A DNA stretch of 64,000 nt, taken from the NCBI GenBank assembly GCA_043228905.1, contig JBHGNT010000001.1:22320001-22384000 (forward strand), given 5' to 3'. The DNA is from Azolla caroliniana (taxonomy: Eukaryota; Plantae; Polypodiophyta). This document shows positions 1,360-54,650 of the stretch, piece by piece. The notes beneath the pieces are model-generated. The model worked only from the letters and a program-made list of their open reading frames with translations. It was not told where the DNA came from and did no database searches. The position numbers and the translations under genes are program-made. The number at the start of each line of letters is the position of its first letter. The stretch's first letter is position 1.

Positions 1360-1814
1360 TGTTGTCCACTGGACCTTAGGCTTAGACGAGTAGAATATAT
1401 TATTAGAAGCATTAAAGAAACGCATGTAACGGTTCACGCTAGGAGCGTAAGGGACTAAAAGCCTTGTGTATATAAAGGGCTGAAATCCTCTGTAAAGAGC
1501 TAGCGTGTAATTAGGGAGCTACCTTTTGTAATGCAATACTATCTTCTCTAATTCCCGTGTCTATGTAAGTCGTCTACTGATTCGGTGTAGTACTCTATCG
1601 GTAATTGTGGGCTAGTAAGCGTAGGGTAAGTGTGTATATGAGATCATGCACCGGTGAGATTCGGTTGTAGCCGTCTCCCTTCACGTCCAGATGATATGCT
1701 TTGCTTTGTAAGCTTGTTACATTTTGCGCACCTACGGATCTATTCCTTGCACCACAATCACCTTGAAGTCTACCTCGAAGGACTGAGAGTAGATAGCGTT
1801 CCTAATCGGTAACA
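1360..1814 (+). repeat. 5' LTR of E1
   Basis: TG...CA ends, TATA tatataaagg near 1469, direct repeat of 9763-10159. Confidence 0.93.
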
Positions 1815-1818
1815 CTTT

Positions 1819-1834
1819 TGGCACGCTTGGTGGA
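1819..1834 (+). promoter_or_regulatory. Primer-binding site, tRNA-Arg type
   Basis: TGGCACGCTTGGTGGA 4 nt after the LTR; resembles the complement of the plant tRNA-Arg(UCU) 3' end (..CCCACCGGGCGTGCCA). Confidence 0.8.
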
Positions 1835-1862
1835 TTTGTGGTTTAGCACAGACGAGGTAAGG

Positions 1863-9702: not shown

Positions 9703-9717
9703 AGGGACGGGTCTGAC

Positions 9718-9747
9718 GTGCCATGGCACTGTCCCAGATGTGTGCCA
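9718..9747 (+). promoter_or_regulatory. 12-bp palindrome plus tRNA-sense (anti-PBS) motif upstream of the E1 3' LTR
   Basis: GTGCCATGGCAC (9718-9729) then GTCCCAGATGTGTGCCA (9731-9747); homologous to 35366-35395. Confidence 0.7.
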
Positions 9748-9762
9748 AGTATTGGCCTCCAG

Positions 9763-10159
9763 TGTTGTCCGTCGGACATAACGCTTAGACGGGTAGAATA
9801 TATTATTAGAAGTGTTAAAGAAACGCATGTAACGGTTCACACTAGGAGCGTAAGGGACTATAAGCCCTGTGTATATAAAGGGCTGAAATCCTCTAATACA
9901 ATACTATCTTTTCTAATTCCCATGTCTGTGTAAGTTGTCTATTGATTTGGTGTAGTACTCTGTTGGTAAATGTGGGCTAGTAAGCGTAGGGTAAGTGTGT
10001 ATATGAGATCATGCACCGGTGAGATTCGGTTGTAGCCGTCTCCCTTCACGTCCAGATGATATGCTTTGCTTTGTAAGCCTGTTACACTTCGCGCACCTAC
10101 AATAACCTTGAAGTCTACCTCGAAGGATTGAGAGTAGATAGTGTTCCTAATCGGTAACA
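9763..10159 (+). repeat. 3' LTR of E1
   Basis: Matches the 5' LTR with substitutions and two internal deletions (397 vs 455 bp). Confidence 0.93.
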
Positions 10160-16700: not shown

Positions 16701-19510
16701 CGCGATGCTACCGAAAACCCTCAAGTGGTGTAGATGCTACCAAATACAGCCCATGTGCCGACACTTTTCCTCCGATCCGATTCTAGATGTAGACCGCGGT
16801 TTGAACTGCTTCGGCCCAATAGAACTTGGGCATGCTCTTTTCTTCCAGCATTGCCCGCGCCGCTTCCACAACCGACCGATTCTTCCTTTCGGCTATGCCG
16901 TTGTGTTCCGGCATATACCTGCAACTGAATTCGCGCCGAATTCCCATTTGTTGCAGATAACTATTGAATTGGCCAGAAAAGTACTCTTTTCCACCATCCG
17001 ACCATAGGCATTTGATCTTCCTCCCTGTTTCCCTTTCGACAAGATTTTTGAAGTTTCGGAAATAGTCGAAGACTTCACTCTTCTTTTCGATGAGGTAGGT
17101 CCAAGTGTGCCGAGTGTAGTCGTCGATGAAGGAGACGAAATATCGACTCCCGTCAAGACACGTTCTGTGCCGGTCCCCATACATCGGAATGTATCAGGTC
17201 GAGCATATTTCGAATCCGATTACGCTCGTTTGGGAAAGGAAATCGGTGTTCTTCCCTAGTTGGCAGGCTTCACAAATTTGGGCCTTTCGACCACATAATT
17301 TCGGCAATCCGAACACAACTTGTTTCGATTGCAGATCCTGAAGCCTTTGGTAGTTGATGTGGCCTATCCACTTATGCCACAAGTCGATATCCGACTCGAC
17401 TTTTTGTCCTTTCACGAACATGGCAGTGCATACATCATTGGTGTCGAGGATAAACATCCTCTCATCTCTGCGCCCTTGCGCAATAATTTGGCCTTCTTCC
17501 TCGGTGAAGCACCCAAGATGCGTGAGCTGGACTTGCATCCCCTAGTCGATGATCTGTTTGACCAACACCAGATTCTTCGTAATTGTCGGCATGTGTAACA
17601 CGTTCATTAGCTTCCCTTTTTCCCCAATGTGGATGACGGGAGCTTTACCGACATGTATAATCGGATGCAGACTGTCGTCTCTTGTTGCGACTACTCCAGG
17701 TTGTTCCGGTTTTTCCAGATATGAGAACCACTCTTTATGGTTCGTCATATGTTTTGACGCTCCGAAGTCAACATAGCACACTTTGTCCGATTTCAGGGTG
17801 GTCTTCTTCATCGAGTTCGCTTCGTGTCTTGTCAAGAAGGCTGCCTCCTTTCAAACTTTTTTGGATCCTTCGGCGTAGTGTGTCCGCTGCCGATTTCCTT
17901 GTTCGGTCCGTCCAGATCCAGATCCGGTTTTCTCCGAATCGGCACACTTCTTCCAGCACACATTCTCCTTGTGGCCTTTCTTGCCACAATACCAGCATTC
18001 CGCGACGTGTTTCCCTTGCCAGTTCTCGTCACCTCTTCGACTCCCCCTACTTCCGAAGGGTTCGGAGTTGTTGTCATCATCACCATGATGCCTTCTTCCT
18101 TGCTCCCATCGGTCGCCTCCATTGCACGCCAACTCACCTTGTCCACCATGACCGCGGGGCCTATCTCCCTCCGTATATAGCATCTTGTTGTTAGCATGTG
18201 TACTCGTCGACGCACCCGTGTGTTTCTCCTCTACAAGGAGCATCGACTTCAAGTTGAAAAACGATGGCGTATTCTCCCTTGTACAAAAAACAGTATGGAA
18301 TGCTCCAAACATCGACGTCAATCCTCTGAGGTAGATCTGCACCAATTCGCCCTCCTGAACGTTCATATTGATGGAGGCGAGGGAGTCCCAGATATCCTTT
18401 ATCTTCGAGGTGTAGTCAACCACCGTCATATCACGTTGATGCACATTGCTCAACTCCTGCCAGACTTGGAGCTTTCTAGCTATGGTGCTTGCGGAGAAAA
18501 TCTTTTTCAGATTTCCCCACGCATCCTTCGGTGTTCTTGCATCCCGAATGTAGCTCAAGAGCTGTTCGTTCACACAGGACACGAAGCAGTAGAGAACTCT
18601 ACTCGTCGAGTGTTCCCAGGCCGGGAAGTCTCTCTTTGTCGATTCGGGTGCTATATCATTCGCTCCCTCAATATATCTCCAACATCCATGTTTGAGAAGG
18701 TACCACGCATCCTTCAGTGTTCTTGCATCCCGAATGTAGCTCAAGAGTTGTTCGTTCACACAGGACACGAAGCAGTAGAGAACTCTACTCGTCGAGTGTT
18801 CCCAGGCCGGGAAGTCTCTCTTTGTCGATTCGGGTGCTATATCATTCGCTCCCTCAATATATCTCCAACATCCATGTTTGAGAAGGTACTGGTGCATCTT
18901 GTACGACCAAGATGTGTAGTTACTTCTGTTGAGCTTCTCAGTTGGAACCGAACTAGCCATACGTCTATCCTTCTTCTTTTTCCTTTTTGTTCTTCACCGA
19001 GATTAGTTTTTTTTGTTTCGAGCTGAAGTCAGATGCAAAGGTTCTCAACCCTCTCACTCTGATACCATATGAAATGTTACGTGCGGAAGCCATACGAGAC
19101 ACAGAATACTGACAGGGAAAAACAACTTTAATAGAGAGCTTAAGACACAATGTGCACGGTAGAGACAGAGAGGGAATAAACATACAGAAAAATTGAATTC
19201 AAAACAATTTGTAAAACTCTATACATAGGATGTGCTCAAAGAGCACTTTTATACAAGTCCATACGGATTGAGAGAAGTATTGACACGTACTTCAATGCTC
19301 CTAACTGAGCTCCTACACTAACTCCCAAATATATTCCCTCGCAGAATATATGTTCAACGGCCTCCCGGTTTCCGCACTAATCTAGCCTCTTGTTGCACAC
19401 CGGTTTGCGCACCAGTTTACGCACCAAACTGGCCTAGCCGATCGGTCCAAACCGATCCGGTTCTCAGCTTGCATAGCCAATCCAGTCAATGTTGAGCTTG
19501 TATCTCAACA
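13711..19510 (-). mobile_element. Ty1/copia B1 (Bryco-like), inverted insertion in A1
   Basis: 5' LTR 19068-19510, iMet PBS 19057-19067, gag MASSVPTEKLNRSNY (17851-18960), INT, RT, RH, PPT 14058-14069, truncated 3' LTR 13711-14057. Confidence 0.92.
18517..18888 (-). repeat. In-frame 186-bp tandem duplication in B1 gag
   Basis: 62-aa block YLLKHG...KDAW repeated; two nucleotide differences seen. Confidence 0.92.
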
Positions 19511-22500
19511 AATTGTGTCAAGTGAAGAGGAACTAATGGCCATCACTGAGGAGAATGAGTTAAACCTTGTCAGCGATGAGACAACCTGGCTTGTCAATTC
19601 CGGAGTGTCGTTCCACCTGACACCGGATCGGAGATGCTTCTCATCCTATAAATCCGGTGATCATGGTTGTGTCCGGATGGGGAATGAAGGGACATGCCGA
19701 ATTATCAGGATAGGAGATATGCTATTGACGATGTCAACCGGATGCAAGGTGCTATTGAAGGATATCCGACACGTTCTAGAGGTTCGACTGAACCTGATAT
19801 CAACCGGTCGGCTAGATGATGAAGGCTACATGGGTAGCATCCTAAACGGAGTCATGAAGTTTAGCAAAGGGATTCTAATAGTGGCTCAAGCCTGGAAGGT
19901 CAACACACTGTACTTGACGGAAAGAAGTGAACGTAGCATCTGACACTACTGGTGAGCTGTGGCACAAGAGACTGTGTCACATGAGTGAGAAGGGGAGGAA
20001 GAGGTTTGCCAAAGACAATCTCATTCCGGTAAAGGTCGGCAAGCCAAACCGAACCTCCTTCTAGTCAAGACCACCACTGAGACGGAATGCACAACTAGAG
20101 ATGGTGCATACCGATGTGTGTCAAGTGGACACGAAGTCACATGCGGAAGCTATGGGCCTCACCGTTGAAGACGAAGGATCAGGTGCTATCCATCTTCAAG
20201 GAGCTCCACACGAGAGTGGAAAGAGAAACTGGTCGGAAGCTAAAGGCGGTTCGAGCAAATAACGGAGGAGAATACCGGGGGCAATTCGAGGAGTACTATC
20301 GATTGAAGGGAATCCGGCTTGAATTTACCGTGCCGAAGAAGCCAGAACTAAACCGGCTGGCCGAAAGGATGAACTGGACCATAATGGAGAGACTCTAAAG
20401 CATGCTCGCACATGCCAAGTTACCCAAGAAGTTTTGGGTTGAGGCGTTGATGATGGAGACCTATGTGATAAACAGATCACCCTTAGTACCCTTGGGAGGA
20501 GACTCACCTCAGAAAGTATGGAACGGTAAAGATGTATCTTATCGGCATCTGATGGTGTTCAGGTGTCTCACATACGCGCATGTGGTGAAGGAGAAGAGAG
20601 GAAAGCTAAATCCGAAGTCTAGGCCATGCATATTCCTTGGATACGGCAATGATGAGTTCGGTTACCGGGTGTGGGATCTGGTCGACAAGAAGGTGTTCCG
20701 GAATTGGTACATAGTCGTCATGGAAGACATGACCATTGCCGACTGGGAGTCGGAGAAGAAGATGATCAACTCTGGATCATCCAATGAGGACACAAGGACC
20801 TACCCAGTTGAAAACCGGATGTTGGCCGGAAATCGGAGGACACTCGACGAACAAGAAACCGAACTGACCAAAGAAGAAGAAGAAGAAGAAAACATCGGAA
20901 CTGGACAAGATCCCGAATCGGATTCCGATTCGGAACTGACGAAGGACCCGTTGTCAGAAACCAGCGATGGAGATATTCTCTCTGAAAGAGAAGAGCCCCC
21001 CAGAGATTTCCAAATGCAGAGCATGTGTTGGTAACCGATGAGGGGGAGCCAGAAAGCTTCAAAGAAGCAAAGAGACACACCCACAGCCACAAGTGGTTGA
21101 GTGCCATGTAGGACGAGTTGGATTCCCTACATGAAAACCACAGTTATGAACTGACGGAGTTGGCGAAAGGGAATAGAGCATTCCGGAACAAGTGGGTGTA
21201 CAAGCTGAAACTGGGAGACGCCGGAAATCCACCAAGGTACAAAGCCTGGATCGTGGTGAAGGGCTTCTAGAAGAAGAAAGGAGTGGACTTCGATGAGATC
21301 TTTGCCCTGGCAGTAAAGATGACATCCATCCGGATGGTATTGGGCATAGTAGTAATCATGGACCTCGAGGTAGAGCAACTGGACGTCCAGACGACATTCC
21401 TCCATGGTGACCTCGAAGAAGACATCTACATGCATCAACCGGAAGGATTTGAGAAGAAAGGGAAGGAGCACCTGGTGTGCCGGCTGAAGAAGAGCTTATA
21501 CGAACTAAAGCAAGCTCCCTGGCAATGGTACCAGAAGTTCGACTCCTTCATGACCGACCAAGGGTACCACAAGATGCAAGCCGATCACTGCATGTTTGTG
21601 AAGAAATTTGACGGAGGTGACTTCCTGATATTGCTCCTATATGTGGATGATATGTTGATTGTCGGATGAGACCAAGGCAAGATCCGGATGCTGAAGAAGG
21701 CTCTGAACCGAACCTTCTCAATGAAAGACTTGGGGCCGGCAAGACAGATATTGGGAATGCACATCATCCGAGACCGGTCGAAGAAGCTATTGTGGTTGTC
21801 ACAGGAGAAGTACGTGACAAAGGTGCTTCAACGGTTCAACATGTCGGAGGCGAAACCGGTCAGATCGACACTTCTGGCAAACTTCAAGCTATCCGGAAAA
21901 CAAAGTCCGAGGACAAAGGCAGAGAAGACGGATATGATGAAGAAACCATATGCCTTTGCCGTCGGAAGCTTGATGTACGTGATGGTATGTACCCAGCTGG
22001 ATACAAGATATGCAGTCGGAGTGGTAAGCCGGTTCATGAGCAATCCCAGTAGAGAGCATTCAAACGCGGTCAAGTGGATACTCTGGTATCTGAAAGGCAC
22101 CTCGAGTATGTGCCTCCGGTTCGGCTCCAGTAATCCCCAACTTGATGGACTCACAGATTCAGATATGTTGGCTGATGCAGATACTAGTCAGTCTACATCC
22201 GGATATGTCATGACTTATGCAGGGGAAGTTGTTTCGTGGCAGTCAAGGATGCAGAAGACGGTTGCGTTGTCAACCACGGAGACATAGTACATGGCAATTG
22301 TAGAAGCCGGCAAGGAGATAATCTGGATGAAGTACCTCATCGGAGAGCTAGGAATCCAACAGGAGGAATATCGGCTCTAGTGCGATAGTCAAAGTGCCAT
22401 CCATCTTGCAAAGAGCGCGGCCAACCATTCCCAAATGAAACATATCCAACGAAGGTACCATTGGATCCGAGAGGGAGTAGAAGATCAAGAGTTCATGCTG

Positions 22501-22850: not shown

Positions 22851-25800
22851 AAAGTGGACGTGGAAGCCGTAATGAGCAAAGATGGCAAGAAGAACGACCC
22901 CAATATATGGTTTGGAACCCACACGATGACCGACAATATCGGAATCGCCGGAATAACAACGATTCCGAGGAAGACGAACCAGAGAATGAAGACTACCGTG
23001 GCAAACATAGAAATACTAAAGGGGGTCGACGCTATGAGAATTACTGTCCGACGAAAAACGGGGCGGCTTCAATGGGAATCACGGAAAACATCGTCAGTAT
23101 CGAGATCAACGGCGGTACGATGAAAGTTCAGACGATGACCGGCACCAGGAATCGCGCTGGAACCAAGAACAACCACCACGTACGCTCCAAAGAACGAACT
23201 AGGACCAGGAGGAGCAAGTCCCGCCTGGGGATCGACACACACCACCAGTTGTCGAGAAAGGAGAATCTAGCGTCTATTGCTTTGTTTGCCAACAACCCGG
23301 ACATTATGCCATACAATGCCCATTACGCAAGGGCGACGAGCCTGCCATCAATATGATTACGGCGGAAGTGCAGCAAGTCACGACACAACAGCAAACAAAA
23401 AATGTCGATTGGGCCGCGCAAGATGAGATACGTCAGATGGCCCGAGCATGGGTTGAAAAAGCAAACACGGAAAATACGAAACGCATGCGGAAGGAGTCCG
23501 CAAACATGGTGGAGCCGACGGAGGAGGATGTAATATCTCCAGATCCCATATGGCAAGCACTGGCAGACTGTGAGATAACGCTAACCATGGAGAAGCTACT
23601 TCAACTAGTCCCATTGTTCCGCCAGGCCGTGGAGGATCGTATAACGAGCAGACCTGGGGTAAGGGTCTCCGCAAATTTTACGGACATTACAGCCGGACCA
23701 ACAGTGGTGGATCACCACAATCCGGCTATTAGTCTGATACTACTCGGTCAGGAAATCCTAGGATGTGTAATCGACAATGGCTATGGCGTCAATGTAACTA
23801 GTGTGAAGACATGCGAGCAATTGGGAATTTCAGAATGGGAAGTTGCCCGTTTTGGCTTCGCATGGCGGATACCCGCTCAATACGGCTATTGGGTTTGATA
23901 CGCAAGATAGGCATTATCATGGGAGGACATCGCTTCGACGTTTCGGTGGTAGTTCTCGCCCTCAATGCCCCAGGAGTGTCCTATGCTGTTGGGCAAACCG
24001 TGGCTTCATTCAGCGAATATCAAGCAGAGCTAGCAACATAAGTGCATCAGCTTTCGACACAGATGCACCAAGGTTCGCGTACCAACAGAGGAAATGGCGA
24101 CACAACCCAATTGCATAACACCGTTATACGCGGAGGATATAAATATGTTGGCTGGGGTGGATGATACAAAATTAGAAGTATACCTTGATGAGCACCCCTG
24201 GATCATTCCGTTATTCGAAATTGACGTCGGAGTATGCCACGCTCGCTAGCTCTATGACGAGTTTTATGAACCAAACCTAGAGTCAATATTAGAACTAAGC
24301 AGAGCACGGGCAACGTTCGAGAGGGAAATGGAAATTTCACGACGAGTCACTGCCTCTGCCCTGGAAGAAGTAAACGTGGGTACGGCGTCAGAACCCCAAT
24401 TCGTCTCCATTGCAAAAGAATTACTGCCGGATCAAAGAGACGCGATGATAGCACTACTCAGGAAGTATATAGATGTGTTCGCCTGGTCCCACGAGGACAT
24501 GAAGGGGTTAGATCTGAGTTCTATCAATATAAGATCAATTTAGCGACCGATGTGAAATCGGTCCAACAACGTCGATACCGCATGAACCCAAACTACGCGG
24601 CTTGCGTAAAAGAAGAAATTGACAAACTCCTCAAGGCCAGATTCATACGACCAGTCAAACAAGCTACATGGTTAAGCCCGATAGTGGTCGTACCAAAGAA
24701 AAATGGCAAAAATACGTGTGTGTGGACTACTGGAAATTGAACGCAGTAACCATTACCGACACATTCCCTTTACCATACACCGTCGTAGGGCATGACATGT
24801 ACAACTTTTTAGATGACGTTTGTCACGGACTAGGGAGTCTATGTCGCAGTCGTCATGAGGTTTGGGCTAAAGACGGCATTGGCTACATTTCAACATACAA
24901 TCATGGAGATTTTTGGGGAATATATTACGGCCTTCATGCAAGTTTTTTTAGAGAATTTTGCGGTATATGGGACAACAACTGACCATTTTACGCACCTGCA
25001 GCTTTGCCTGGAGCGTTGCCGAACCACGCGCTTAAGCCTGTATCCCGCCAAATGCGCCTTCGGCGTTACCAGTGGGGCTCTCCTTTGCCACATAGTCAGT
25101 AAGGAAGGGATAGTGGTTGATCCGAACAAAATATCCGCGATTACTCATGCGAAAACACTGACAAACATGAAAGCACTTAGCCGGTTTCTGGGACATATAC
25201 GATGGCACAGTCGGATGATACGCTATTTGGAGGATTTCGCCACGCCATTACATGCCGCCGTTCATCAGACTCCTTTCAAATGGACAACAACAGAAGAGAA
25301 GGCGTATGATGCACTAAAGATAATGCTGACGCAGGCACTCGTCGTACAACCACCAATTTGGGCGAAGCCATTCCACCTGTTCGTAGATGCGTCAGACATA
25401 GTAATAGATAGTGCGCTAATGCAGCTCACGGAGCCGAATTGGTACCAGCCAGTGTACTACGCTAGTCGAAAACTATCAACAGCTGAGCGTAACTATTCCA
25501 CAACAGAACGTGAGGCGTTGGGTATGATATACAAGATCAATAAGTTCCGGCATTATCTGTTAGGGCGGAAATTCACGTTTCACGTGGATCATTCAACATT
25601 GCTATATTTGGTAGGGAAACAAGTGCTGACAGGGAAATTGGCTAGATGGATGCTACTGCTTCAAGAATTCGACTTTGTAATTCAGAATAGATAACGGTGA
25701 AACGACGCAAAAGGATGACGACGACTTTCCAGATACGGACATTCTATGTGTAGCAACTCTAGCAAAATGAACGGAAAAAACTTTTCCAGATCGGTGGCTG

Positions 25801-28506
25801 ATGGAAATGACCTACTTCCTGCCGCCACCCCGATTACGGACGGACGAGAAAAAACGGATGGCCGTACGAAGTCAAAATTTCTGTTTAGTAGAAGACATAC
25901 TATACCACAAAGGTAGTGACGGCATCTGGAGGCGTGGAATACGGCAAGATGAGAAGGCCGCGGTTTTACATGAAGCCCACTGTGGTACAGCGGGAGGACA
26001 TTACGCGAGCGATGTTACGGCCGGGAAAATCTGGCAGGCAGGACTTTGGTGGCCGACGACGCAAAGGGATGCGTATGAATATTGTAGACAGTGTGATTTA
26101 TGTCAACGACTGGGCCAGCCCATGGAAGTCGTGAGAATGCCACACCAACTAGTGTTGCCTCTGGATCCTTTCCAAAAGTGGGGGCTAGATTTTGTGGGAC
26201 CATTCACCCGGGCGGCCGCTCGAACAGACAATAAGTACATCTTAGTGGCCATAGATTATTGTACCAAGTGGGTAAAAGCGAAACCACTACGCGAGAATAC
26301 CACGGCAGTCACGGCGAAATTCCTTTACAAACACATCTGGTGTCGTTTCGGCTGCCCTATCAAGCTCATTAGTGACCAAGGGAGTCACTTTTTGAATACG
26401 GTCATCAGCGAACTGACCCAACATTACGTTGTGGTTCACAAAAAGAGTACGCCGTATTACCCACAGGCTAATGGCTTGGTGGAATCCATGAACCAAACCC
26501 TACAAACTATCCTTAAAAAGATAGTCAATGAGAATAGAACGGATTGGGATACCAAATTGCACAACGCGTTATGGGCATACCGTACCAGCTATTAGACCAG
26601 CATACAATCAACGCCTTTCAGGCTAGCATTTTGTCTGGAGGCCGTGATGCCGATCGAATTCCAGGTACCCAATCTGCGGATTCAAGTACGAGCCCGGCTA
26701 CCAGAGGGCAAATCCGAACATGTACGGCTACAACAACTGCTAGAGCTAGGAGAAACAAGGTTACGAAGTATGGTCATCTTGGAGTAGGAACAGCGGTGGT
26801 GCAAGGCATTCGTGGACTGACACTGGCATGTGCGTGAAAAAGATTTTACAATTGGGAAAGCAGTATTAGTTTTCCAAACATGCATGTCGCATATGCCAGG
26901 AAAATTAAGATTCCGCTGGATAGGCCCGTACTGGATAGTGGGAGCAGAACAGGCAAGTTTCAACTTGGCACGTTGGCCGGGGAAGTGTTACGTCAAAAAG
27001 TAAATGGGTTTCGCCTTAAACCTTATCTGGGACCTACGCCACCTAACCCGTTCCCCGCCGAACAGGGCAAAGCCGGAAAATCCGCGGAGTAACTATAAAG
27101 CCCCACCTATACTATAGTGTAAAGATAATATTGTATGTAACCATTACGAAAAAGAAAAAGAAGAGAAGATAGTGACGTTATTAAAAGGACTTAAGGCATG
27201 CACAGACTTCTAGGCCAAGAACACACGGCACCATATTGGCTAACGGACCAATGAACCCTAGGCCACAAAAAGAAGGAAATAAAAGGTTTTCTGCACACTA
27301 TAGAAACCAACCTTCTAACTCGCATCGCTCGTATCACTCCCCTTCCTCATCCTCTTCTCCATCCTATCACAGAGCTCAAGTTCGCCATAGCCAGCAATCC
27401 TCACCCATTAACCACGAGCCTAATCCGACTATGCTAATACCCATCTCTGCCGCCTTGCGTCGATGGCTCATGGAGAAACGCTTGGATGGATACATCAGAG
27501 TCGCCGAGGCACCTCCCCACCCTGAAGCCCTAGACATCGCGAGGAAACTCAATATCGACACAATGACCAACACATCCATCCGGAAAAAGCTTGACCTATC
27601 ATCACTGGGTGAAAGGCATTTCAAAATCCCTCCTGTGGAAACTTTGCAGAGATATTTTGGGCCTTATTCGGCGTCCGCCAAGGCATATAGAACGAAGGAG
27701 ATCCCCGACCCCTTTTTCCGCGAAATAGCCAAGCTCCTGTTGGAGGTCGGATGCATACATGTAAACGCATATGGGATGCCCAAGAAGAAGGCAGGTATCA
27801 TCATTGTTATCTTTTAAGGGCGTATGGTCGATTGGGGGATCATTACGGGACCGGCAATACGGGAAGGCCTGCATGCGTATCAAGGAGGCAAAAAGCTCAG
27901 GCCTATCATACAACAATATCTGACAATACTATTCCAACCCCGAGGTCTACCGGCATCGCAGTCCAGCCAACCTATGCCGCTGCCACGATCCACGAAATGA
28001 AGGTTAGTTGAGTTGGCCACCACAGAGTGGGAGGATGAACCCCAATCTGCCCAAACTAACACGCGAACAATGCAGGAAGAGCGGGCGGAGCGCAACGAGG
28101 AAGCTGCACAAGAGCCAGAAGCCGAACCACGTCAGGAAAGCCCGAGGCCGAAACGGCGGAGGCTGGATAGGAAATATGGATGCGGGTTAGTTAAAGACAT
28201 ACTCGCGGCCACAGAGACGACGACCGTGGTCCACAACTCCCTAGCTACGGAGCCCAACACCACCTTCGAAATAATCCGGGAACCACGATCGATCATTACG
28301 GCCTAGTCTCAACGGGGGAAAGGCGTATTTACGGCGGAAAGCGAGTTCCTGGCATATCCAGACATTCCGGCCACGACCCATGAGTTCGGCACACTATTAC
28401 ATTTTGGAACCACTTCTGAACTCATGGAATTTTTGGCAACGCAACAAATAAAAGTCTCACAAGGAATGGTCGAGGAGCACGCGGAGCGCCAAATGATCGA
28501 GCGCGC

Positions 28507-29178
28507 TGTCGCGTTGTTACGCGCGTGCGTGGAGAAGGGCGGAACCACGGGGGTCTCGGACTAAGGAGAAGGGGAGAAGGAATAGGACTTCGGAATGGAG
28601 CTTAGCACAAGAAGAGGAAGAATGAACAAGAGGAAGATGGAGGCCAAATGCTCAACAAGATATATTAGAACCGAAACCGATTACAAAATGGCGGCCGCGT
28701 AGGCCGCACCAAACGACTATGATAAACCCGAAACCCTAATCCGACGAAGAAGAAAAGAAACCCTAACCCTAAAACGAAATGGTATACCTCACTCACACTC
28801 AAAATAAGGCAACCCCCACAATGGTGCTCTTCCTCTCCCTTTATAGCACAAGGAGGGAAGACCGTTACATAAAGGGGTGCTACAAAATATCCCCTTTCAA
28901 TCAATGGGGATATTTCCCTTGATTTTAGGGGAGGTGGGAAGGATGGGTCTTAACTCCCACCTCTACACGAACTACTATGTACCTATCTCTCTCTCTCACG
29001 TGGATGTGCGCGCAAAAGCACATCACCTCTACACTTTACAAATCCTAAGGTGCATTTCTAGCACCATACTTATCACTATCGATAAATAGAAATACAACAT
29101 GGTGATGTGCAACGTTGCACATCGCGGGTTTGCTTGCTTCGCTCGGTTTTCCGCCTATGGACGAAAATCTTCACGACA
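28507..29178 (-). repeat. 3' LTR of the tRNA-Trp element
   Basis: Identical by eye to 33207-33878 except at 28518, 28520 and 28523; identical small ORFs in the track. Confidence 0.95.
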
Positions 29179-29191
29179 TCCGCCCCCACCT
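29179..29191 (-). promoter_or_regulatory. Polypurine tract
   Basis: AGGTGGGGGCGGA on the minus strand abutting the 3' LTR. Confidence 0.75.
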
Positions 29192-29201
29192 AACCGCACA
29201 T

Positions 29202-32200
29202 CTACCGGTATGTGCCAAAAGGGGAACAAAACGCGAGATTTTCGGCCAAGGCGGCCAACCGAGCCCTTGACAACCTCGTGGGCTTGCCCGGCTTCGTCTT
29301 CCACTTCGAGCAAGTCCACCCCGTCCACACGAACCACCGTCGCCTTCCGGCCCACCATATCCGCCGAATGGTCTCGAACCGGCGGCTCCATCCGATCCGC
29401 CACACTCGACAATGCTCGCCGAGTCGTTGCCTCCACCTGATCCGCCACGTCCACCGTGTTTCCTCGAACCACCGACTACACTCGGACCGCCATATCCGAT
29501 GCCCGTGCTTTCCTCCCCGTTCGGTCCTCCCGAACGCCGTTGCCGACCCTTTGTCCGCCTCGCATATCCTCCGGATCCGCCTTTTTCGTGCCGCGCACCT
29601 CGTCGTGCCGACTCTTCTCGCTCCGCGCTCGCCTTCCGTAGGCTTTCCCCGTATGTCGGTGTCGTCCTCCGAATGCGTGCTCGTGCTTCGGTCCTTCGAT
29701 GACCCCATCACGCATTTTTCGTCTTCCCCTTGCTTGCCGTGCTCTCTCGCCGTAGAGCATACCATCGTTCCCGTGCTCGTTGCTTGGCCCTCATGCGACC
29801 GTATTGCACGTTTCGCATTCCGCTCCTCTTCGCGTACCCTTTCGGAAAGGTACCCTTCTTCCCCGACCTCCGTTTCGCTCGGAGGAACACCCTCTTGGCC
29901 CCCTTGGCCCGCTCGACCGCACACATCCTTCGTGATGTCGTGTTCGTTCCTTTGGGCGCATACATCTTCGTTCACCGCGACCTCCCGTATGCCTCTCTCG
30001 GTGCCTTCATCCGTTGTGGCCTTCGTCCCCTCGCCGCCACCGTCCGCCACTCTTGGTCTCACGTCGGCACTCGCGCCGATCGCCGGAGTCTCTATAGCCG
30101 GTGTGGAGGATCCCTCTCGGGTCTTATCTTCGTGGCCGCCGGTCTTAGCCTCTCCGTAGGCCACCTCTTCCCACCAATCTTCCCTAGCATCGTGCCGGGT
30201 CTCGTCGTCGCCGCCTTCCTCCTCGTATTCGCCTCTCGAAGGCGTGATCCGACCGTCATCTTCGGTTGCTCGATGTGGCTCCTTCGTAGGCATGCTTGTG
30301 TCTTGGCCCTCCATCGGCCGTATTGCATGCATCTCGTCTCGCTCTTCCGCCGTAGACCCGACCTCCGTGTCGGTCTTCTCCTCCTTTGTCGCCGTAGCCC
30401 GTTCCGACACGGGCTCGCCGTCTTGGACCCACCCGTCCACCATCTCGTACCGGATATCCGTTCCGGTAACCTCGTACGCTCCGGTCTCCGACTCCTCGCC
30501 GCCACCCGCCGTTTCTCCGGTCTTATGTTGATCCGCAACCGCCGTAGTCTCTAGAGTGGGTATGGAGGGTCTCGTTTGTTTCCGTTTTTCCCCCGAACCA
30601 TGGTCGTCGTGCCCGGCTAGCCTCCATCTCGCGCTTACCGGCTCCCATCGTAACCGTAACCGTAACCGGCCAATCGGTCTCGCCGGCTTCCTTCGGTTTG
30701 GGCCCGGTTCGCCGGCCCTTACTCTCTTCTTCTTCCGTGCCGTATTCCGGTCGGGTCGGTTCCCGACTCTCTCCTCGTTTCCGCTCCGGTCCTCTCCGTC
30801 GGACCCACCGTATACGCCCATTCCGGGCCCCGCATACTCATCTTCGTATGCGCTCTCTCCGGGCCTCACCTCCTCACGGTCACCGCCCATCTCTCCGGTC
30901 TCACGTTGGCATTCGAGCACAACCGCCGAAGTCTCCGGCCCCGACGTCAAGGGGTCTTGCCTCCGTCCGCTCCAATCTTCCTTCTCGATTCCGTTGCCCG
31001 CCTTGCCGCCGTCACCTCCCGTCGCACTAAGCCTCATGCCGGCTCTTGGGCCGGCCATTGGAGCCTCTAGGATTGGTGTGGGTAAGGACCCGGCACCGCC
31101 GCTTGTTGTCTCCGTAGCCGCTTTCGTTCGGACGTCGTTGTCCGCGGCTCCCCCATCTCCGATTCCGTAAGCCTCTAGTATGCTTGCCACCACCTCTTCT
31201 TCGCCGTTCTCCGCATCATTTTGTTTGCCCGCCTTGCCGCCGCCACCGCCCGTCGTTCTAGGTCTCGTGCCGGCACTCGGGCCGACCGCCGAAGCCTCTA
31301 GGGCCGGTGTGTGGAAGGTCGCGGCACCACTACTCCTCTCGTCCGTAGCCACCTCCATTCGGACATCGTCGTCCGTGGCTACCCCGTCTTCGGTTTCGCA
31401 AGCATTGAGTATGCTTGCCGCCGCCTCTTCTTCGCCGGTCTCGTCCTTATCTCGGTTGTCCGCCTTGCCGCCGCCACCGTCCGTAGCTCCAGGTCTCGTG
31501 CCGGCACTCGGGCCGACCGCCGAAGCCTCTAGGGCCGGTGTGTGGAAGGTCGCGACACCGACGCTCGTCTCCTCTTCCTCCTCCATTTCGCAAGCCTCGA
31601 GTATGCTCGCGAAATCCTCGTAGAACGTTTCGGGCAACCGCGTCCCGAAACTTCCGCCCACTCTCGAAGTGGCGTCCATCGCTCCGTAGATATCGGCCTC
31701 ATCCATGGCCGTTCTTTTTCCCCGAGATGAGACGGTCGCTTGCTCCGCACCTTCTCTCGTGTCGACGCCGTGGTCGCCCGCCTTGCCACAGCCACCGCCT
31801 TTCACCATAGGTCTTACGCGGGCACTCGGGCCGGCCGCCGTGATCTCCCGGAATGACGCGTGTAAGGTCGCGGGACCGCCGCTCGTCGATGTAATGTCCG
31901 TAGCCACCTCCGCTCGGACGTCGTTGTCCGTGGCTACCCCGCCTCCGTATATGCAAGCATCGGTTATGCTCGCCGCCGCCTCTTCCGCGGTCTCCTTACC
32001 GTTGTCTCGGTTGCCCGCCTTGCCGCCGCCACCGTGCTTTTCCCTCGGTCTCACGCGGGCGCTCGGGCCGGCCGCCGGGGTCTCTTGAACCGGTGCGTGG
32101 AAGGTTGCGGTACCGCCGCTTGTCTCCTCCGTACTCGATGATTCGGGCCACCATGTCCCGAATCCGCCATGTCCGCTCGAATCGGCGACCGCCGCCTCAC

Positions 32201-33164
32201 CGTCCCCGACCTCGTCCTCGGTCGTTCTTTCCCCCCATGTCGAGAGGGCGGCTCGCTCCGCACCCTCTCCCGTGGTACCGATGTACCATTCTCTTTCGGC
32301 CTCCGCATAGGCCCCGTCCTCCATGTGTGAGGAAGCTCCTTCCTCCGCGTCCTCCGATCCGCTCGGGCCCGACCCCGCAATAAGCCATTCTTCGGCTTCG
32401 ATTTTCGCCATTACGAGCCCGCACGCCTCCCGTATTAGCGCTTGTAGGTCGAGCCCCTCCAAACCGGTTCGCGATGAGCTCTCGTCCGGCGGCATGGCGT
32501 AGTTGGTCGTCGCTCTCTCTTCTCCCCCGCTCGCGGGCCGTGTTGTGGCCGACCGCCTCGCCTCATGTTGCCGACACACCCATTCCACTTCGGGCCACTC
32601 CTCGGTGAGACCATGCGCCCCATAATCGTCTTGAAGCTCGAACGTGATGTCCATCCTCTCCTCGTGATGGACCGTCTCCAAAAATAGGAGGACTTTGTCC
32701 GCCCCCACCGATCTTCGTTCCCACTCCGAGAGTTGAGAGAAACGACGCTCGAACTCTCGGAATGCCTCTATTGCGCTCCGATGGCGCCTCGCCGACGCCA
32801 TCCACCGATCGAACTCTCGCCGACCTCTTACCTCCGATTCCGCGCACCCGTATGCCTCCATTAGAGCCCCTTCAAAGGACTCCCACGATTCGTGAGCTTC
32901 TTGGAGCTCCTTGACCTCCTCGTACTTTGATGCGGCCGCCGCTCGACGAAAGAACTCTAGCCTCGTCGCTTCGTCCACGCCCATCCCCGTCATTTCCGCA
33001 TCGTAGGCTCTCAAAAATTTTGGGACCTCCTTCCCATCGAACCGGCCGACTAGACGGACCACCCTTTCGACCGCTTGTTGAGCCGCCTCTCGCCTCGCCC
33101 TCTTCCGTCCGGCGTCCGTCAAGATCTTTGTCATCATCTCCTCGAAGTCGAAGCCTTCCTCCAT
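29202..33164 (-). CDS. 1320-aa protein: retrotransposon Gag-like N-terminus plus long acidic G/A/T/E-rich repeat tail, no Pol motifs
   Basis: Fully open ORF filling the internal region; RFDGKEVPKFLRAYDAEM...WESFEGALMEAY...FERRFSQLS resembles gag; about 60-aa repeats ATFHTPALEASAVGPSAGTRP. Confidence 0.85.
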   Translation of the reverse strand: MEEGFDFEEMMTKILTDAGRKRARREAAQQAVERVVRLVGRFDGKEVPKFLRAYDAEMTGMGVDEATRLEFFRRAAAASKYEEVKELQEAHESWESFEGALMEAYGCAESEVRGRREFDRWMASARRHRSAIEAFREFERRFSQLSEWERRSVGADKVLLFLETVHHEERMDITFELQDDYGAHGLTEEWPEVEWVCRQHEARRSATTRPASGGEERATTNYAMPPDESSSRTGLEGLDLQALIREACGLVMAKIEAEEWLIAGSGPSGSEDAEEGASSHMEDGAYAEAEREWYIGTTGEGAERAALSTWGERTTEDEVGDGEAAVADSSGHGGFGTWWPESSSTEETSGGTATFHAPVQETPAAGPSARVRPREKHGGGGKAGNRDNGKETAEEAAASITDACIYGGGVATDNDVRAEVATDITSTSGGPATLHASFREITAAGPSARVRPMVKGGGCGKAGDHGVDTREGAEQATVSSRGKRTAMDEADIYGAMDATSRVGGSFGTRLPETFYEDFASILEACEMEEEEETSVGVATFHTPALEASAVGPSAGTRPGATDGGGGKADNRDKDETGEEEAAASILNACETEDGVATDDDVRMEVATDERSSGAATFHTPALEASAVGPSAGTRPRTTGGGGGKAGKQNDAENGEEEVVASILEAYGIGDGGAADNDVRTKAATETTSGGAGSLPTPILEAPMAGPRAGMRLSATGGDGGKAGNGIEKEDWSGRRQDPLTSGPETSAVVLECQRETGEMGGDREEVRPGESAYEDEYAGPGMGVYGGSDGEDRSGNEERVGNRPDRNTARKKKRVRAGEPGPNRRKPARPIGRLRLRLRWEPVSARWRLAGHDDHGSGEKRKQTRPSIPTLETTAVADQHKTGETAGGGEESETGAYEVTGTDIRYEMVDGWVQDGEPVSERATATKEEKTDTEVGSTAEERDEMHAIRPMEGQDTSMPTKEPHRATEDDGRITPSRGEYEEEGGDDETRHDAREDWWEEVAYGEAKTGGHEDKTREGSSTPAIETPAIGASADVRPRVADGGGEGTKATTDEGTERGIREVAVNEDVCAQRNEHDITKDVCGRAGQGGQEGVPPSETEVGEEGYLSERVREEERNAKRAIRSHEGQATSTGTMVCSTAREHGKQGEDEKCVMGSSKDRSTSTHSEDDTDIRGKPTEGERGARRVGTTRCAARKRRIRRICEADKGSATAFGRTERGGKHGHRIWRSECSRWFEETRWTWRIRWRQRLGEHCRVWRIGWSRRFETIRRIWWAGRRRWFVWTGWTCSKWKTKPGKPTRLSRARLAALAENLAFCSPFGTYR

Positions 33165-33184
33165 CTCTTTCTCCCTTGCCGCCC

Positions 33185-33202
33185 TTCACGTCGGGTTCAC
33201 CA
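33185..33202 (-). promoter_or_regulatory. tRNA-Trp primer-binding site
   Basis: Plus strand TTCACGTCGGGTTCACCA matches the plant cytosolic tRNA-Trp 3' end as I recall it; 4 nt from the 5' LTR. Confidence 0.88.
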
Positions 33203-33206
33203 AAGA

Positions 33207-33878
33207 TGTCGCGTTGTAATGCACGTGCGTGGAGAAGGGCGGAACCACGGGGGTCTCGGACTAAGGAGAAGGGGAGAAGGAATAGGACTTCGGAATGGAG
33301 CTTAGCACAAGAAGAGGAAGAATGAACAAGAGGAAGATGGAGGCCAAATGCTCAACAAGATATATTAGAACCGAAACCGATTACAAAATGGCGGCCGCGT
33401 AGGCCGCACCAAACGACTATGATAAACCCGAAACCCTAATCCGACGAAGAAGAAAAGAAACCCTAACCCTAAAACGAAATGGTATACCTCACTCACACTC
33501 AAAATAAGGCAACCCCCACAATGGTGCTCTTCCTCTCCCTTTATAGCACAAGGAGGGAAGACCGTTACATAAAGGGGTGCTACAAAATATCCCCTTTCAA
33601 TCAATGGGGATATTTCCCTTGATTTTAGGGGAGGTGGGAAGGATGGGTCTTAACTCCCACCTCTACACGAACTACTATGTACCTATCTCTCTCTCTCACG
33701 TGGATGTGCGCGCAAAAGCACATCACCTCTACACTTTACAAATCCTAAGGTGCATTTCTAGCACCATACTTATCACTATCGATAAATAGAAATACAACAT
33801 GGTGATGTGCAACGTTGCACATCGCGGGTTTGCTTGCTTCGCTCGGTTTTCCGCCTATGGACGAAAATCTTCACGACA
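33207..33878 (-). repeat. 5' LTR of the tRNA-Trp element
   Basis: Direct repeat of 28507-29178; minus-strand TATA GCTATAAAGG near 33540; telobox motifs. Confidence 0.95.
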
Positions 33879-35365
33879 GCGTGCTAACACAAACAGCGGA
33901 AAGCGACGAAGAGGATCAGTTAGCCAGAGTCAGCCGACAGAGGAACGCCGGTATCCGCCGTATGGGGATGGAACTACCCCCATTAAACGTGGCCCTTGTC
34001 GAAGTTCATAGGGAACTGGCGAAGGTTAGTATGGGCGCCAAGGATATGGCGATTAAAAATAAAAATGTCTAGAAGACTGTCAAATTGACCCAAGCCGAGT
34101 TACAAAACGCCAACGGACACATTGCGGAGTTGGAGCGCAACACGACTACGGCGCAACAGGCAGCTCAACCAACATCCAACGCTGCCGAGGCCCTGAGAGA
34201 TGAAATTGAAGCCCAGACTGCCATTGCCTCGAAAGCAAAACGGGCCGTGCAACTGGCGGAATCGGGGACTGACCGTCTCTGCTCCGAACTTCGCCAGTCC
34301 TCGAACAGAGAGAAGGACATCCGGGCCAACGGCTGAAAGGCAATGAAGACCCTTGAAGAGAAACTCGTAGCGGAGGCAGGATAGCACACCCGCATGAAAG
34401 AAGAAAACGCCAAACTATGGGAGGAAGCGAAAAAATCGTAAGCGGAGATTACGGGACTCCAGGCGTTATTAGACAAGAAGAAAGCATGGTTCGACGAGTA
34501 GCTAGTTGGGGAACAAGAGAGGAGGAATCAGCTCGAAATACGCCTGAACAATGAAATGGGAAAGATGGAAGAATTACATTCGAAGGAATCTCCGCAATGG
34601 GCAAGGATGAGGAGCACGTAAAAGTGGCGCTAGACAAAGGCTGGATGGCGTGGCCCGCACAAGCAGCGGAATTGCATACATACCGGGCGGACTGGGAGAC
34701 CCGAATGAAGGACGACGAAGGGTTCTACAAACTCAATGAGGAAAGCATTGTGATAGTACGTGAGGACCTAGCGTAGGACTATCGCACGCTAGTGGACCAA
34801 CACTCCGAGGAACCCGTGCAGCTACTAGACGATTATGGCGAAAGTCAGGATCATGCAACTACTAGACCTGTTTCACCAGATCATGCAAGCCGGCAGCACG
34901 CGAACAAACGAGGAATCCATCGCGATACCAATTCCAGATATTGCCGAACAAGAGGAACCTCAGCCCATGTCACCGGAAATAACCGCTACGGTGGACAGCA
35001 CAGAACAGCAAGCAGAGCCCCCCGCGGTACCAGAAAGCGAAACCGCTGACCAAGAGGAACCCAAGCCCCATTCACCGGACTGTACGCCTATGGCCAACGC
35101 CACGGAGGAAGTTATGGATGAGACAGAACCTCGACCGGCCGCAAGCCCACCGACGGCTGAACCAACCACAATAGCACAAGATGAGCCAGCAAAGCTTGGA
35201 CCGCCCACACAAGAAGCCAGCGACACCATGGGAAGCCCTCTTGAGCAAGTAGTGGAACCATGCAATGACGCGCCTAGGAACAGTACGCCATCCCCGGACC
35301 CGGACACCGGAGCAAAACCAAACATCAGGGCCATTTTGGAGGAAGATTAAAGGGGTGGGTCCGAC

Positions 35366-35397
35366 GTGCCATGGCACTGTCCCACAGGTGTGCCAGG
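35366..35397 (+). promoter_or_regulatory. Palindrome plus tRNA-sense anti-PBS abutting the E2 3' LTR
   Basis: GTGCCATGGCAC (35366-35377), GTCCCACAGGTGTGCCA (35379-35395), GG, then LTR TG. Confidence 0.8.
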
Positions 35398-35865
35398 TGT
35401 TGTCCGCCAGAATAGTAACCGACGGACAGTAGTGCAGATATATAGAATATAGTAAAATTGTAACGCATGTAAACGGTTCATGCGGGAAGTGTGAACGGCT
35501 TAAAGACCTGTGTATATAAAGGGTAGAAATCCTCTGATAGAGGTAGCGTGTAAATTTGGGTGCATAGAGTGTATCTTAATAGAGTGTTATCTTCTGCATA
35601 TCTGTGGCTAATCTACTGTGTGTCTGTGATTCTTGGTGTCATATTGTAATCACTGTAATCGTAAGAAGCGTAGGCGTAAGTGCGAGTGTTGTGACGAGTG
35701 CACTGTCTAGGGAGTTCAGTTGTAGCCGTCTCTCGTATACGCTACTAGGATGTGGAGAGGTATCCCATTATGTATTACAGCACGACGGTACCATTCGGGG
35801 CTATGTAGTCACCTTGAGATCTAGGTCAAAGGACTGACTGAAGACCGTGTTCCTAATCAGTAACA
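35398..35865 (+). repeat. 3' LTR of E2
   Basis: TGTTGTCC...CCTAATCAGTAACA, homologous to the E1 LTRs. Confidence 0.9.
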
Positions 35866-51560: not shown

Positions 51561-51620
51561 ATACACCTATACGGATAACACCTGGCACGCCTATGGGACA
51601 GTGTATTGCACGTTGAACCC
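51561..51620 (-). mobile_element. Inverted fragment matching the E-family anti-PBS/3'-LTR junction
   Basis: ATAACA CC TGGCACGCCTATGGGACAGTG..GCACGTTGAACCC aligns with the reverse complement of 35357-35403. Confidence 0.7.
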
Positions 51621-51859
51621 ACAAGCCCATGCCGAAAAAATTCTATTGACCGGAACTCCATCGATCTTCTCTTCTCTCACGGTCGGAAATCCCTCCACCG
51701 GATTAAAGCTCTACGATCGATAACTTCAATCGAAGCTGGCTTGACCCGAACCTTCTCATTCGGTCAAAATATCGTGGTACAGTCATTTAGGTTTATCAAT
51801 GATTGTGGGTGTATGTGGGTGTGTGTATATATATATGTGTGTGTTTTTCTTCCTTAGTG

Positions 51860-52025: not shown

Positions 52026-52167
52026 TCTCCGAAATAAGTCGACACAGTGTATTTACGTGGAAAACCTCCAGAGGCAAAACGACGGGAGTTCTCTTACTCT
52101 AAACAGGATCACTATAGAGAAGAGTGTTACCCATAAGAATATACATGGAGGCATAACGGGTGGAACA
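52026..52167 (-). mobile_element. Copia-type LTR U5 fragment, inverted
   Basis: Minus strand CCGTCGTTTT..GGTTTTCCACGTAAA resembles the type A U5 block. Confidence 0.5.
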
Positions 52168-52521
52168 TGATAATGTGGTTGATGTGTATGGGTAATGGGA
52201 ATGAGTGTATGAGGATGAGTATGTGTATGTGTATGAAAACATGCACATTTGTGTGCATGTGTACAAAGGTGAGAAAGTGGGTAAGTAATGTAACTCCCTA
52301 CTTGTCTCATTCTTTATTTGTAATGGTTACCTCTTGTACAATATAAACCCCACCCATGGGGCATAATGTAATATAAGTTTTTCCCCTCTCATTTTGGTGT
52401 GTTTCTTATTTGTTTCTCTCTCTCCCTCCCTCCCTCACACGTAATCCCCCTTGGGAGGGGGATGAAGCCATTCTAGGCCTCAGTCCCCACCCATTAACAC
52501 TTTTGGCACACACAGTGGGAC
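52168..52521 (+). mobile_element. LTR (52168-52499) plus tRNA-Arg PBS (52504-52521) of another gypsy-like element
   Basis: TGATAATG...CATTAACA, TATA near 52342, then CTTT TGGCACACACAGTGGGAC, the same spacer and PBS type as E1. Confidence 0.75.
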
Positions 52522-53737: not shown

Positions 53738-53910
53738 TCATGAGGGAACTTGTAAGCAATTTCCTTCCCTTAACCTCGTGTTTGTTTTAGTCATAGTGAA
53801 CTTGATTGCGATAATGGCCTCAACATAGATTATGGCGGTGGGTGCATCTTTTACTAAAGCATACATGTGGGAGGACCATCGCAACTTTCCATAGTAGTTG
53901 TTATATTGAA
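53738..53910 (-). pseudogene. Diverged duplicate of the transposase C-terminal segment at 54800-54975
   Basis: YALVKDAPTAIIYVEAIIAIKFTM vs YALLQDAPTTIIYDYAIFAIKFTM. Confidence 0.7.
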
Positions 53911-53911
53911 C

Positions 53912-54650
53912 AAAAGAGGATATATACATGACGAGAAACAATTAACACTATAAGAGCACCAAACACTTTATGAAAACCAAAGAGGATATATACATTACTA
54001 GAATTAGTTAGCACTATTAGAGCACCAAATACGCTATGAAAATCAAAGAGGATATATACTATACTAGAAACAATTAACACTATAAGAGCACCAAAAACTT
54101 TATGAAAACCAAAGAGGATATTACATTACTAGAAACATTTACCACTATAAGAGCACCAAACACTTAACGAACACCAAAAAGGATATATACATTACTAGAA
54201 ACAGTTAACACTACAAGAACACCAAACACTTTATGAAAACGAAAGAGGATAATACATTACTAGAAACAGTTCACACTACAAGAGCACCAAACACTTTACG
54301 AAAACCAAAGAGGATATTACATTGCTAGAAACATTTAACACTATAAGAGCACCAAACACTTAACAAACACCTGAAAGAGGATATATACCTTACTAGAAAC
54401 AATTAACACTACAAGAGCAACAAACACTTTATGAAAACCAAAGAAGATAATACATCACTAGAAACATTTAACATTATATTAGCACCAAACACTTTATGAA
54501 AACCAAAGAGGATAATATATTACTAGAAAACTTTAACACTATATAAGCATCAATCACTTTATGCAAACCAAAGAGGATATATACATTAATAGAAACAATT
54601 AACACTATAAGAGCGCCAAACACTTTGGGAAAACCAAAGAGGATATATAT
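53912..54650 (+). repeat. 65-66-bp minisatellite, about 11 copies
   Basis: Unit similar to AAAGAGGATATATACATTACTAGAAACAATTAACACTATAAGAGCACCAAACACTTTATGAAAACC; GAGGA at 53916, 53982, 54048, 54114. Confidence 0.92.

Follow-up and report, generated by a model that had tools for sequence, protein, structure and literature searches.

A conserved tRNA-like cassette in place of the polypurine tract in a group of plant Gypsy retrotransposons

We found that a group of plant Gypsy retrotransposons carries a cassette of about 41 nt where the polypurine tract (PPT) should abut the 3' LTR. The cassette is real and conserved, and it stands in place of the PPT. It resembles the 3' part of a tRNA-Arg ending in CCA, and a second host tRNA-Arg probably primes the plus strand there in these PPT-less elements. 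The cassette was recognized in the window, by which we mean the whole analyzed stretch of 64,000 nucleotides, and was then compared with relatives in metagenome contigs.

The cassette and the E2 junction

In the window, plant LTR retrotransposons lie nested within one another. They include a decayed Gypsy element, E1 (1360-10159), and a second one, E2, whose family is 66-70% identical to E1 in gag-pol. A Copia element adjoins the E2 gag at about 22853, and the 5' LTR and primer-binding site (PBS) of E2 were not found within the window. The features are as follows.

1360..1814, + strand: E1 5' LTR, without a cassette upstream; left flank GCAAT; its right end is borne out by mixed loose contig ends behind 1814 in four runs
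1819..1857, + strand: E1 PBS (1819-1834), behind it a hairpin and a short patch complementary to the T-loop, in the modular order of the cassette's minus strand
9707..9749, + strand: decayed E1 cassette and AG spacer
9750..10159, + strand: E1 3' LTR, aligning with the E1 5' LTR from 9763 and with the E2 LTR from 9750; right flank GCAAC
22854..35354, + strand: E2 internal region: decayed gag, RT, RNase H and integrase, followed by an additional ORF into which an LTR element is nested (28507-33878)
35338..35355, + strand: purine-rich stretch at which the extra ORF ends (stop codon 35348-35350); not a conserved PPT, most relatives being T-rich or mixed here
35355..35364, + strand: GTGGGTCCGA, resembling a copy of the T-arm 5' strand and T-loop in tRNA sense; 88% mean column identity over 35 rows
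35366..35377, + strand: inserted hairpin GTGC-CATG-GCAC; stem columns 95% and loop 70% identical
35379..35395, + strand: tRNA-Arg-like 3' end with CCA, 17 nt, a PBS if read on the minus strand
35396..35397, + strand: 2-nt spacer between CCA and the LTR TG, GG or AG (AG-TG in L055)
35398..35865, + strand: E2 3' LTR (TG...CA); mixed loose contig ends behind 35865
51562..51622, - strand: cassette and first LTR bases of a second, apparently non-autonomous family
52125..52521, + strand: 5' LTR (52125-52499) of the non-autonomous family, without a cassette upstream, and its 18-nt PBS (52504-52521), which has a base missing from the cassette

At the E2 junction, GTCCCACAGGTGTGCCA (35379-35395) is followed by GG and then by TGTTGTCC from 35398. 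As the earlier note had proposed, this stretch resembles a tRNA-Arg 3' end including CCA, one nucleotide short, and the minus strand reads LTR-CA, 2 nt, TGG, like a normal PBS junction. With up to three mismatches allowed, the 17-nt motif matched the window three times, at 9731-9747 (+), 35379-35395 (+) and 51583-51599 (-), against 0.14 matches expected. None of 100 shuffles gave three or more matches, and an 18-nt version had no ungapped match within the window. Both recurrences that had been pointed out, in E1 and, inverted, at 51583, were found, but the latter copy lies in a different, apparently non-autonomous family and is broken off about 19 nt into its LTR.

The 17-nt motif is real, but the conserved unit is larger, a cassette of about 41 nt (35355-35395) whose T-arm segment and hairpin had been missed. 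It consists of a T-arm strand, an inserted hairpin and the tRNA-Arg-like 3' end with CCA, followed by two purines and the LTR TG. The hairpin, whose loop differs in length and sequence from family to family, is inserted just inside the last 18 tRNA bases. This 18-base edge is described as the point where a reverse transcriptase copying the tRNA primer meets a methylated base (PMC11241228).

The cassette pattern without the hairpin matched four viral loci, two of which ARAGORN calls as tRNA-Arg(TCT) and two of which are uncalled. The letters of GTGGGTCCGA precede the 3' end of the ARAGORN tRNA-Arg(TCT) genes L051 and L053, with one difference, C for T. The cassette thus appears to be the sense 3' part of a tRNA-Arg, one base short, a label taken from two of four phage tRNA genes serving as surrogates and not from host tRNAs. 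At T35389 of E2, 91-95% of the contig depth in four runs carries C, the base of the tRNA genes. Rfam returned two chance matches on the cassette, and ARAGORN found no tRNA genes in the window, L001, the 34 plant-like loci described below, L055 or L058. As RNA, the junctions folded no better than shuffles (z -1.4 to +0.8); as DNA, L055 alone stood out (z -2.0).

The LTR of autonomous families opens with a second hairpin, TGTCCG...CGGACA (window 35401-35428, L003, L019, L028, L041 and L049). Contig depth is still high up to 35428, and this hairpin may belong to the plus-strand start signal. In run X12, 14 contigs have T-rich loose ends just before the cassette at window position 35355, which fits families with a T-rich spacer.

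Other elements of the window were also recorded. The extra ORF after integrase (window 8644-9702 and 33944-35350; also in L028) has no Pfam match, and its ILxILxED-like end is conserved in many families. The nested element at 28507-33878 (-) is young, with LTRs 99.6% identical, a GCGC/GCGT duplication of 4 bp, a G-rich tract ahead of the 3' LTR, one open frame of 1327 aa without a Pfam match, and a PBS that is presumably of tRNA-Trp type. It is apparently Phygy-like and non-autonomous, and its 4-bp NCGN-type duplication is the Phygy signature in the REXdb summary table (PMC6317226) and might hint at a moss-like host. E1 has inserted into another, distantly related Gypsy element, whose RT-RNase H region lies at 438-1359 (-). 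Two AT-rich tandem arrays lie at 53909-54651 and 55668-57422, with periods of about 66 and 72 bp.

The missing polypurine tract and the LTR start

The observation that no purine run abuts the E2 3' LTR held throughout. The abutting 12 nt contain 7-8 purines in 11 of 11 junctions, and the intact L055 likewise has no conventional PPT abutting its 3' LTR, whereas two controls, the Copia element of the window and the chromovirus beside L055, have a clean purine tract, 2 nt and TG. The nearest pure purine runs in E2 end 42 and 51 nt upstream of the LTR, close to the 40 nt given earlier. E1 and E2 have a 7-nt run ending 42 nt upstream that overlaps the stop codon of the extra ORF, and a run of 6-7 nt is retained 42-48 nt upstream in E2, E1 and L055, a point against the tRNA reading given below.

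The LTR start at TG, which had been fixed by the target site duplication (TSD) of E1, was correct, but E1 by itself is a weak anchor because its TSD is imperfect (GCAAT/GCAAC, 4 of 5 bases agreeing) and its 3' LTR start carries 13 nt (9750-9762) absent from its 5' LTR. This 13-nt difference does not shift the LTR start upstream. The contig pile-up at the start of the E1 5' LTR was uninformative, the copy being divergent there. The start is better fixed by four 5' LTRs that begin at TGTT without a cassette upstream, at window 1360, window 52125, L045 1353 and L055 5930, and it does not lie at the upstream purine run. An alternative LTR start at 35356, at the TG after the purine run in E2, was ruled out by these cassette-free 5' LTRs.

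These data also bear on whether the cassette is a captured tRNA relic, with the true PPT being the purine run about 42 nt upstream and the LTR either starting further up or having its end trimmed. A purine-rich patch in E1, E2 and a few close loci (6 of 32 junctions have at least 11 purines among the last 15 nt ahead of the cassette), followed in E2 by the TG at 35356, is consistent with such a relic. However, 21 of the 32 junctions have at most six purines in the same 15 nt, several families have a T-rich spacer ahead of the cassette, and a purine run of five within 60 nt is absent from 8 of 11 hand-picked, mostly T-rich junctions. Given also the cassette-free 5' LTRs and a cassette far better conserved than its flanks, we regard the relic as largely refuted and give it hardly any credence.

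Conservation among relatives and the distant element L055

A pattern scan of metagenome contigs returned 49 loci, 34 of them plant-like and 15 set aside by eye as chance matches without a T-arm segment or TG. The 34 plant-like loci, all picked by the motif and all from one set of assemblies, contain 37 matches; alignment A2 excludes four matches too close to a contig end and one duplicate row. The plant-like matches have in common GTGGGTTCGA, a hairpin GTGC-loop-GCAC, GTCCCAC-RGGCGTG-CCA, two purines and TGTT. TGTT comes directly next in 35 of the 37 plant-like matches and in 0 of the 15 unrelated ones, TG not being in the search pattern. Over the 35 aligned rows, mean column identity rises from 54% upstream to 88% in the T-arm segment, which lies outside the search pattern; the hairpin loop has 70%, the four opening LTR bases 96% and the LTR beyond them 65%; two of the eight hairpin stem columns are fixed by the search pattern itself. 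The motif is therefore better conserved than its flanks.

By the 400 nt upstream of the cassette, the matches fall into groups of 16, 6, 4, 3 and 2 with six singles, and the cassette is common to at least five families with unrelated UTRs. Among the groups are autonomous-type families with the same extra ORF at their end and also a family of 2.2-2.6-kb units without a gag-pol match. Contig depth was maximal on the cassette in four public runs from three organisms. In run X1, it reached 196,466 at 35380-35404, compared with 18,190 at 35430-35454 and 4,360 at 35280-35304, and in run X12 it was 6,410 on the cassette and 0 in the bins 35280-35304 and 35430-35454, all values being summed contig depth and not copy number. 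The viral collection contained no relatives by protein and one chance motif match.

At seven loci (L005, L007, L015, L028, L033, L035 and L043), cassette, LTR and PBS follow one another directly, as in tandem arrays with a shared LTR. These may be collapsed assemblies, but the two units of L007 differ by 14%. One copy, in L004, has six extra bases (293-298) between the spacer and TGTT.

L055 is the sole element found without the motif, the one locus returned by a protein-only search with P0127. It is 13.8 kb long, its gag (644 aa) and pol (2444 aa) frames are open, its LTRs are 93% identical, and its pol is 48-52% identical to those of E1 and E2. Its flanks show a perfect CAATA duplication only with the right LTR end taken 2 nt short of CA. 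Upstream of its 3' LTR lies a hairpin, CATTTGTC-TC-GACAAATG, with CTCCACCAGGTGTGCCA, AG and the TG following. The hairpin is unrelated to and longer than that of the close families but occupies the same place, and the tRNA part has the full spacing. The complement of CTCCACCAGGTGTGCCA agrees with the L028 PBS at 13 of 14 bases (P = 1.6e-7 for a fixed place and equal base frequencies) and with the E1 PBS at 14 of 16 (P about 2e-7, fixed place).

The own PBS of L055 is different, TGGCGACTCCGCTGGGGA, at 7574-7591. Against it, the cassette pairs at four terminal bases, followed by a four-base mismatch (10 of 18 overall), with a net energy of -7.9 kcal/mol. The two sites of L055 thus appear, from base matching, to fit different tRNAs; the PBS type is one that we take to be another tRNA-Arg, the one used by Ogre, and the viral collection held no tRNA gene for it. 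The pol frame of L055 continues for about 1000 aa beyond integrase.

The L055 contig (G001:C10; L055 1-5800 compared with 5930-19690) belongs to a bacterial MAG and carries a plant-type Gypsy element and a chromovirus about 600 nt away from frameshifted sugar ABC transporter genes. Bacterial transporter genes are here joined to eukaryote-like DNA, and the contig is likely chimeric; the element is consistent within itself.

Priming of the plus strand

A plus-strand primer must end 2 nt before the TG, where CCA ends, so it would be either an annealed tRNA or a fragment of the element's own RNA; under both readings, plus-strand synthesis would begin at a tRNA-type end and not at a purine tract. 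The absence of an abutting PPT and the conserved tRNA 3' end 2 nt before the LTR make a second host tRNA the likely primer. Among the four options listed in the earlier note, this one, in which tRNA-Arg primes the plus strand, is the best supported, and it remains conditional.

We propose the following order of events, each step of which is inferred. The minus strand would be primed as usual by a tRNA at the 5' PBS. After strand transfer, U3 and the cassette would be copied into the minus strand and the RNA cleared by RNase H. The bare minus-strand DNA could then offer a PBS of 16-18 nt, a looped-out hairpin and, in most families, a T-arm-complementary patch. tRNA-Arg would anneal, and RT would extend its CCA end across the 2-nt spacer into the LTR. 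Finally, RNase H would remove the tRNA and integrase would trim the spacer. Intact relatives have the RT and RNase H catalytic motifs.

The leader provides a mirror image of this layout. The PBS lies right after the 5' LTR in E1, L028 and L055, a leader hairpin is present family-wide, and PBS, hairpin and T-loop patch occur in equal order at both element ends. The cassette likely originated as an inverted duplicate of the U5-PBS-hairpin leader. In non-autonomous elements (L005 366-385, L045 1686-1705), a 10-nt PBS in the leader is followed after 3 nt by a box of 7 nt. This box pairs with the cassette T-arm segment through G-U pairs and could pair with a tRNA T-arm, as a bipartite PBS.

Cofolding was carried out for eight cases, the window case being the E2 cassette with the E1 leader. 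The minus-strand cassette with surrogate tRNAs gave -23 to -36 kcal/mol net, and the cassette with its own leader gave -11 to -16 kcal/mol net. RNA:RNA parameters stood in for the DNA:RNA hybrid, and the energies are partly circular because the surrogate tRNAs came from a cassette-shaped pattern. The T-arm patch of L055 is weak (net -14.6 to -18.4), and in the close families the cassette hairpin shows no covariation above shuffles (83 and 86 of 500 as high); both weigh against tRNA priming. Family-level substitutions are few: G>A and T>C, which wobble with the tRNA on the minus strand, and T>A, which does not, too few to weigh.

The earlier reader overlooked the second type of primer. RNase H might cut the hybrid after CCA, as in tRNA-primer removal, so that the element's own tRNA-like fragment would serve as a non-purine PPT without a second tRNA. 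Position and 2-nt spacer fit this equally well, the sense RNA of the close families can form the T-stem with the inner hairpin (89.6% of cells paired), and no second tRNA need be loaded onto DNA. However, a copied hybrid is always fully paired, and nothing obvious would then keep at least 16 bases tRNA-like between elements with about 50% pol identity, and least so in L055, where the minus-strand primer differs. The sense fold also tolerates changes unfit for a tRNA mimic: where the surrogate tRNAs have U in the T-loop, 6 of 35 rows have C and 3 of 35 have A, and GTGAG disrupts the T-stem in 3 of 35. We consider an own-RNA primer, the main alternative, unlikely, though worth serious attention. 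An annealed tRNA is favored by the tRNA-end identity kept at about 50% pol identity even with a different minus-strand primer, by the hairpin at the 18-base edge, by the equal order of modules at both ends, by the changes in the sense fold and by the base of the 52504 PBS that is missing from the cassette. That base also points to a real tRNA, not the cassette, as the minus-strand primer.

The cassette had further been described as roughly complementary to the element's own PBS, with pairing proposed to circularize or self-prime the RNA or to mask the PBS from 3' tRNA fragments; the plus strand would then have to be primed otherwise. Complementarity does extend over 10-11 terminal bases in the close families, and one position covaries there (PBS CCC with cassette GGG, PBS CCT with cassette AGG); Ty3 is also described as joining its two ends through a bipartite PBS (PMC5371799). 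However, one tRNA variant serving both ends would explain the covarying position equally well, L028 has a mismatch at pair 9, and the four terminal pairs of L055 are too few for functions that need complementarity. Because the L055 PBS fits a different tRNA, pairing, self-priming and masking are undercut as a general function, and they leave the fixed 2-nt distance to the LTR and the missing PPT unexplained. Such pairing may be a side effect in the close families, and we regard it as a very improbable explanation of the cassette.

The last option, that the cassette is a PBS for antisense transcripts that would make the element replicable both ways, agrees with the PBS-like minus-strand junction. 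However, the sense cycle would still need a plus-strand primer, so this option supplements tRNA priming instead of replacing it, and the E2 LTR has a TATA-like box in sense orientation at about 35512. As an explanation in its own right, it is extremely unlikely.

Taking the tRNA primer as the preferred reading, we think it more likely than not that a whole clade of plant Gypsy elements, with its non-autonomous riders, has abandoned the PPT. Host tRNAs would prime both strands, with two different tRNAs in L055 and mirror-image PBS-hairpin modules at the ends. If true, the PPT rule would be optional, as a successful high-copy clade without a PPT would demonstrate, and RT could begin DNA-templated synthesis from a tRNA annealed to DNA. 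It would also allow a clean in vitro test of what specifies the plus-strand primer and the left end of the LTR, with L055 as an intact element usable for testing. A further prediction is that 3' tRNA fragments would have another target, on either the minus strand or antisense RNA.

Relation to known elements and priming systems

The group belongs to Ty3/gypsy by its RT-RNase H-integrase order with gag, direct LTRs and TSD, and full-length relatives have gag, zinc knuckle, RT, RNase H and integrase. No chromodomain was found after integrase in the relatives, unlike chromoviruses including Tcn1. A second, archaeal-type RNase H (aRH), the mark of Tat, had no family match in P0122, P0123 or the 2444-aa L055 pol, where integrase follows RNase H directly. 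Within RT-RNase H, identity to named relatives is 37-42%. A quick tree of 43 rows places E2 in a 12-row clade (SH-aLRT 100) inside a 19-row clade with P0127 (99), apart from the named angiosperm and fern proteins, a reference Athila set not being part of the tree.

Among the lineages in the REXdb summary (PMC6317226), Athila, TatI-III, Ogre, Retand, Phygy and Selgy share with this group the lack of a chromodomain, a length of about 9-14 kb and, in part, a 5-bp TSD, and TatIII, Ogre and Retand have a tRNA-Arg-type PBS, as in this group. Tat has the aRH domain, whereas none was found here, and the PBS and TSD of Athila, Phygy and Selgy are unlike those of this group (PMC6317226). Athila is listed with a tRNA-Asp, Asn or Ala PBS against the Arg-like one here, and Phygy and Selgy with a 4-bp TSD and a tRNA-Trp or tRNA-Ala PBS, whereas the E1 TSD reads 5 bp (4 of 5 matching) and its PBS is Arg-like. 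That summary has no lineage combining an Arg PBS, a 5-bp TSD and no aRH (PMC6317226). As for the layout, which the earlier reader could not place in any known description, our literature search likewise found no tRNA site replacing the PPT; GyDB, Repbase, most subscription papers and the per-element PBS table of PMC6317226 lay outside its scope. Annotation tools that require a PPT would likely overlook or downgrade the cassette group.

HIV-1 reportedly has a tRNA-Lys3-like sequence in U3-R that aids minus-strand transfer, a report associated with Piekna-Przybylska in 2010. That sequence also lies near the 3' end of the retroelement, but HIV keeps its PPT. Retroviruses and LTR retrotransposons are described as following one general rule, plus-strand priming at a PPT (PMC5371799, PMC3185511). 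Canonical systems such as HIV-1 and Ty3 are like this group in their TG...CA LTRs, TSD, 5' PBS, gag-RT-RNase H-integrase order and 2-nt spacer (PMC5371799, PMC3185511, PMC11241228), but they have an RNase H-resistant PPT where the tRNA-sense cassette ending in CCA stands here.

The bipartite PBS of Ty3 and Ty1 is described as adding T-arm pairing beyond the tRNA 3' end and a 3'-end element in tRNA contact, as is proposed here; those segments, however, are complementary to the tRNA on the RNA and serve minus-strand priming, whereas here the complement lies on the minus strand at the PPT position (PMC5371799). Self-priming in Tf1 and Tcn1 uses a sequence complementary to the own PBS, as is present in the close families here, but it serves the minus strand (PMC6317226), and here the L055 cassette misfits its PBS and the 52504 PBS has a base missing from the cassette, which sets this group apart from self-priming elements, TAR included. 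Helenus TRIMs also contain a tRNA-derived sequence, but theirs is described as a promoter inside the LTR with PBS and PPT kept, whereas here a 3' part lies outside the LTR and replaces the PPT (PMC10886601). In the accounts cited, these nearest precedents (bipartite PBS, self-priming, Helenus, HIV U3-R sequence) have to do with priming of the minus strand, with promoters or with strand transfer; what is new here is an intact distant element, L055, whose two sites appear to fit different tRNAs.
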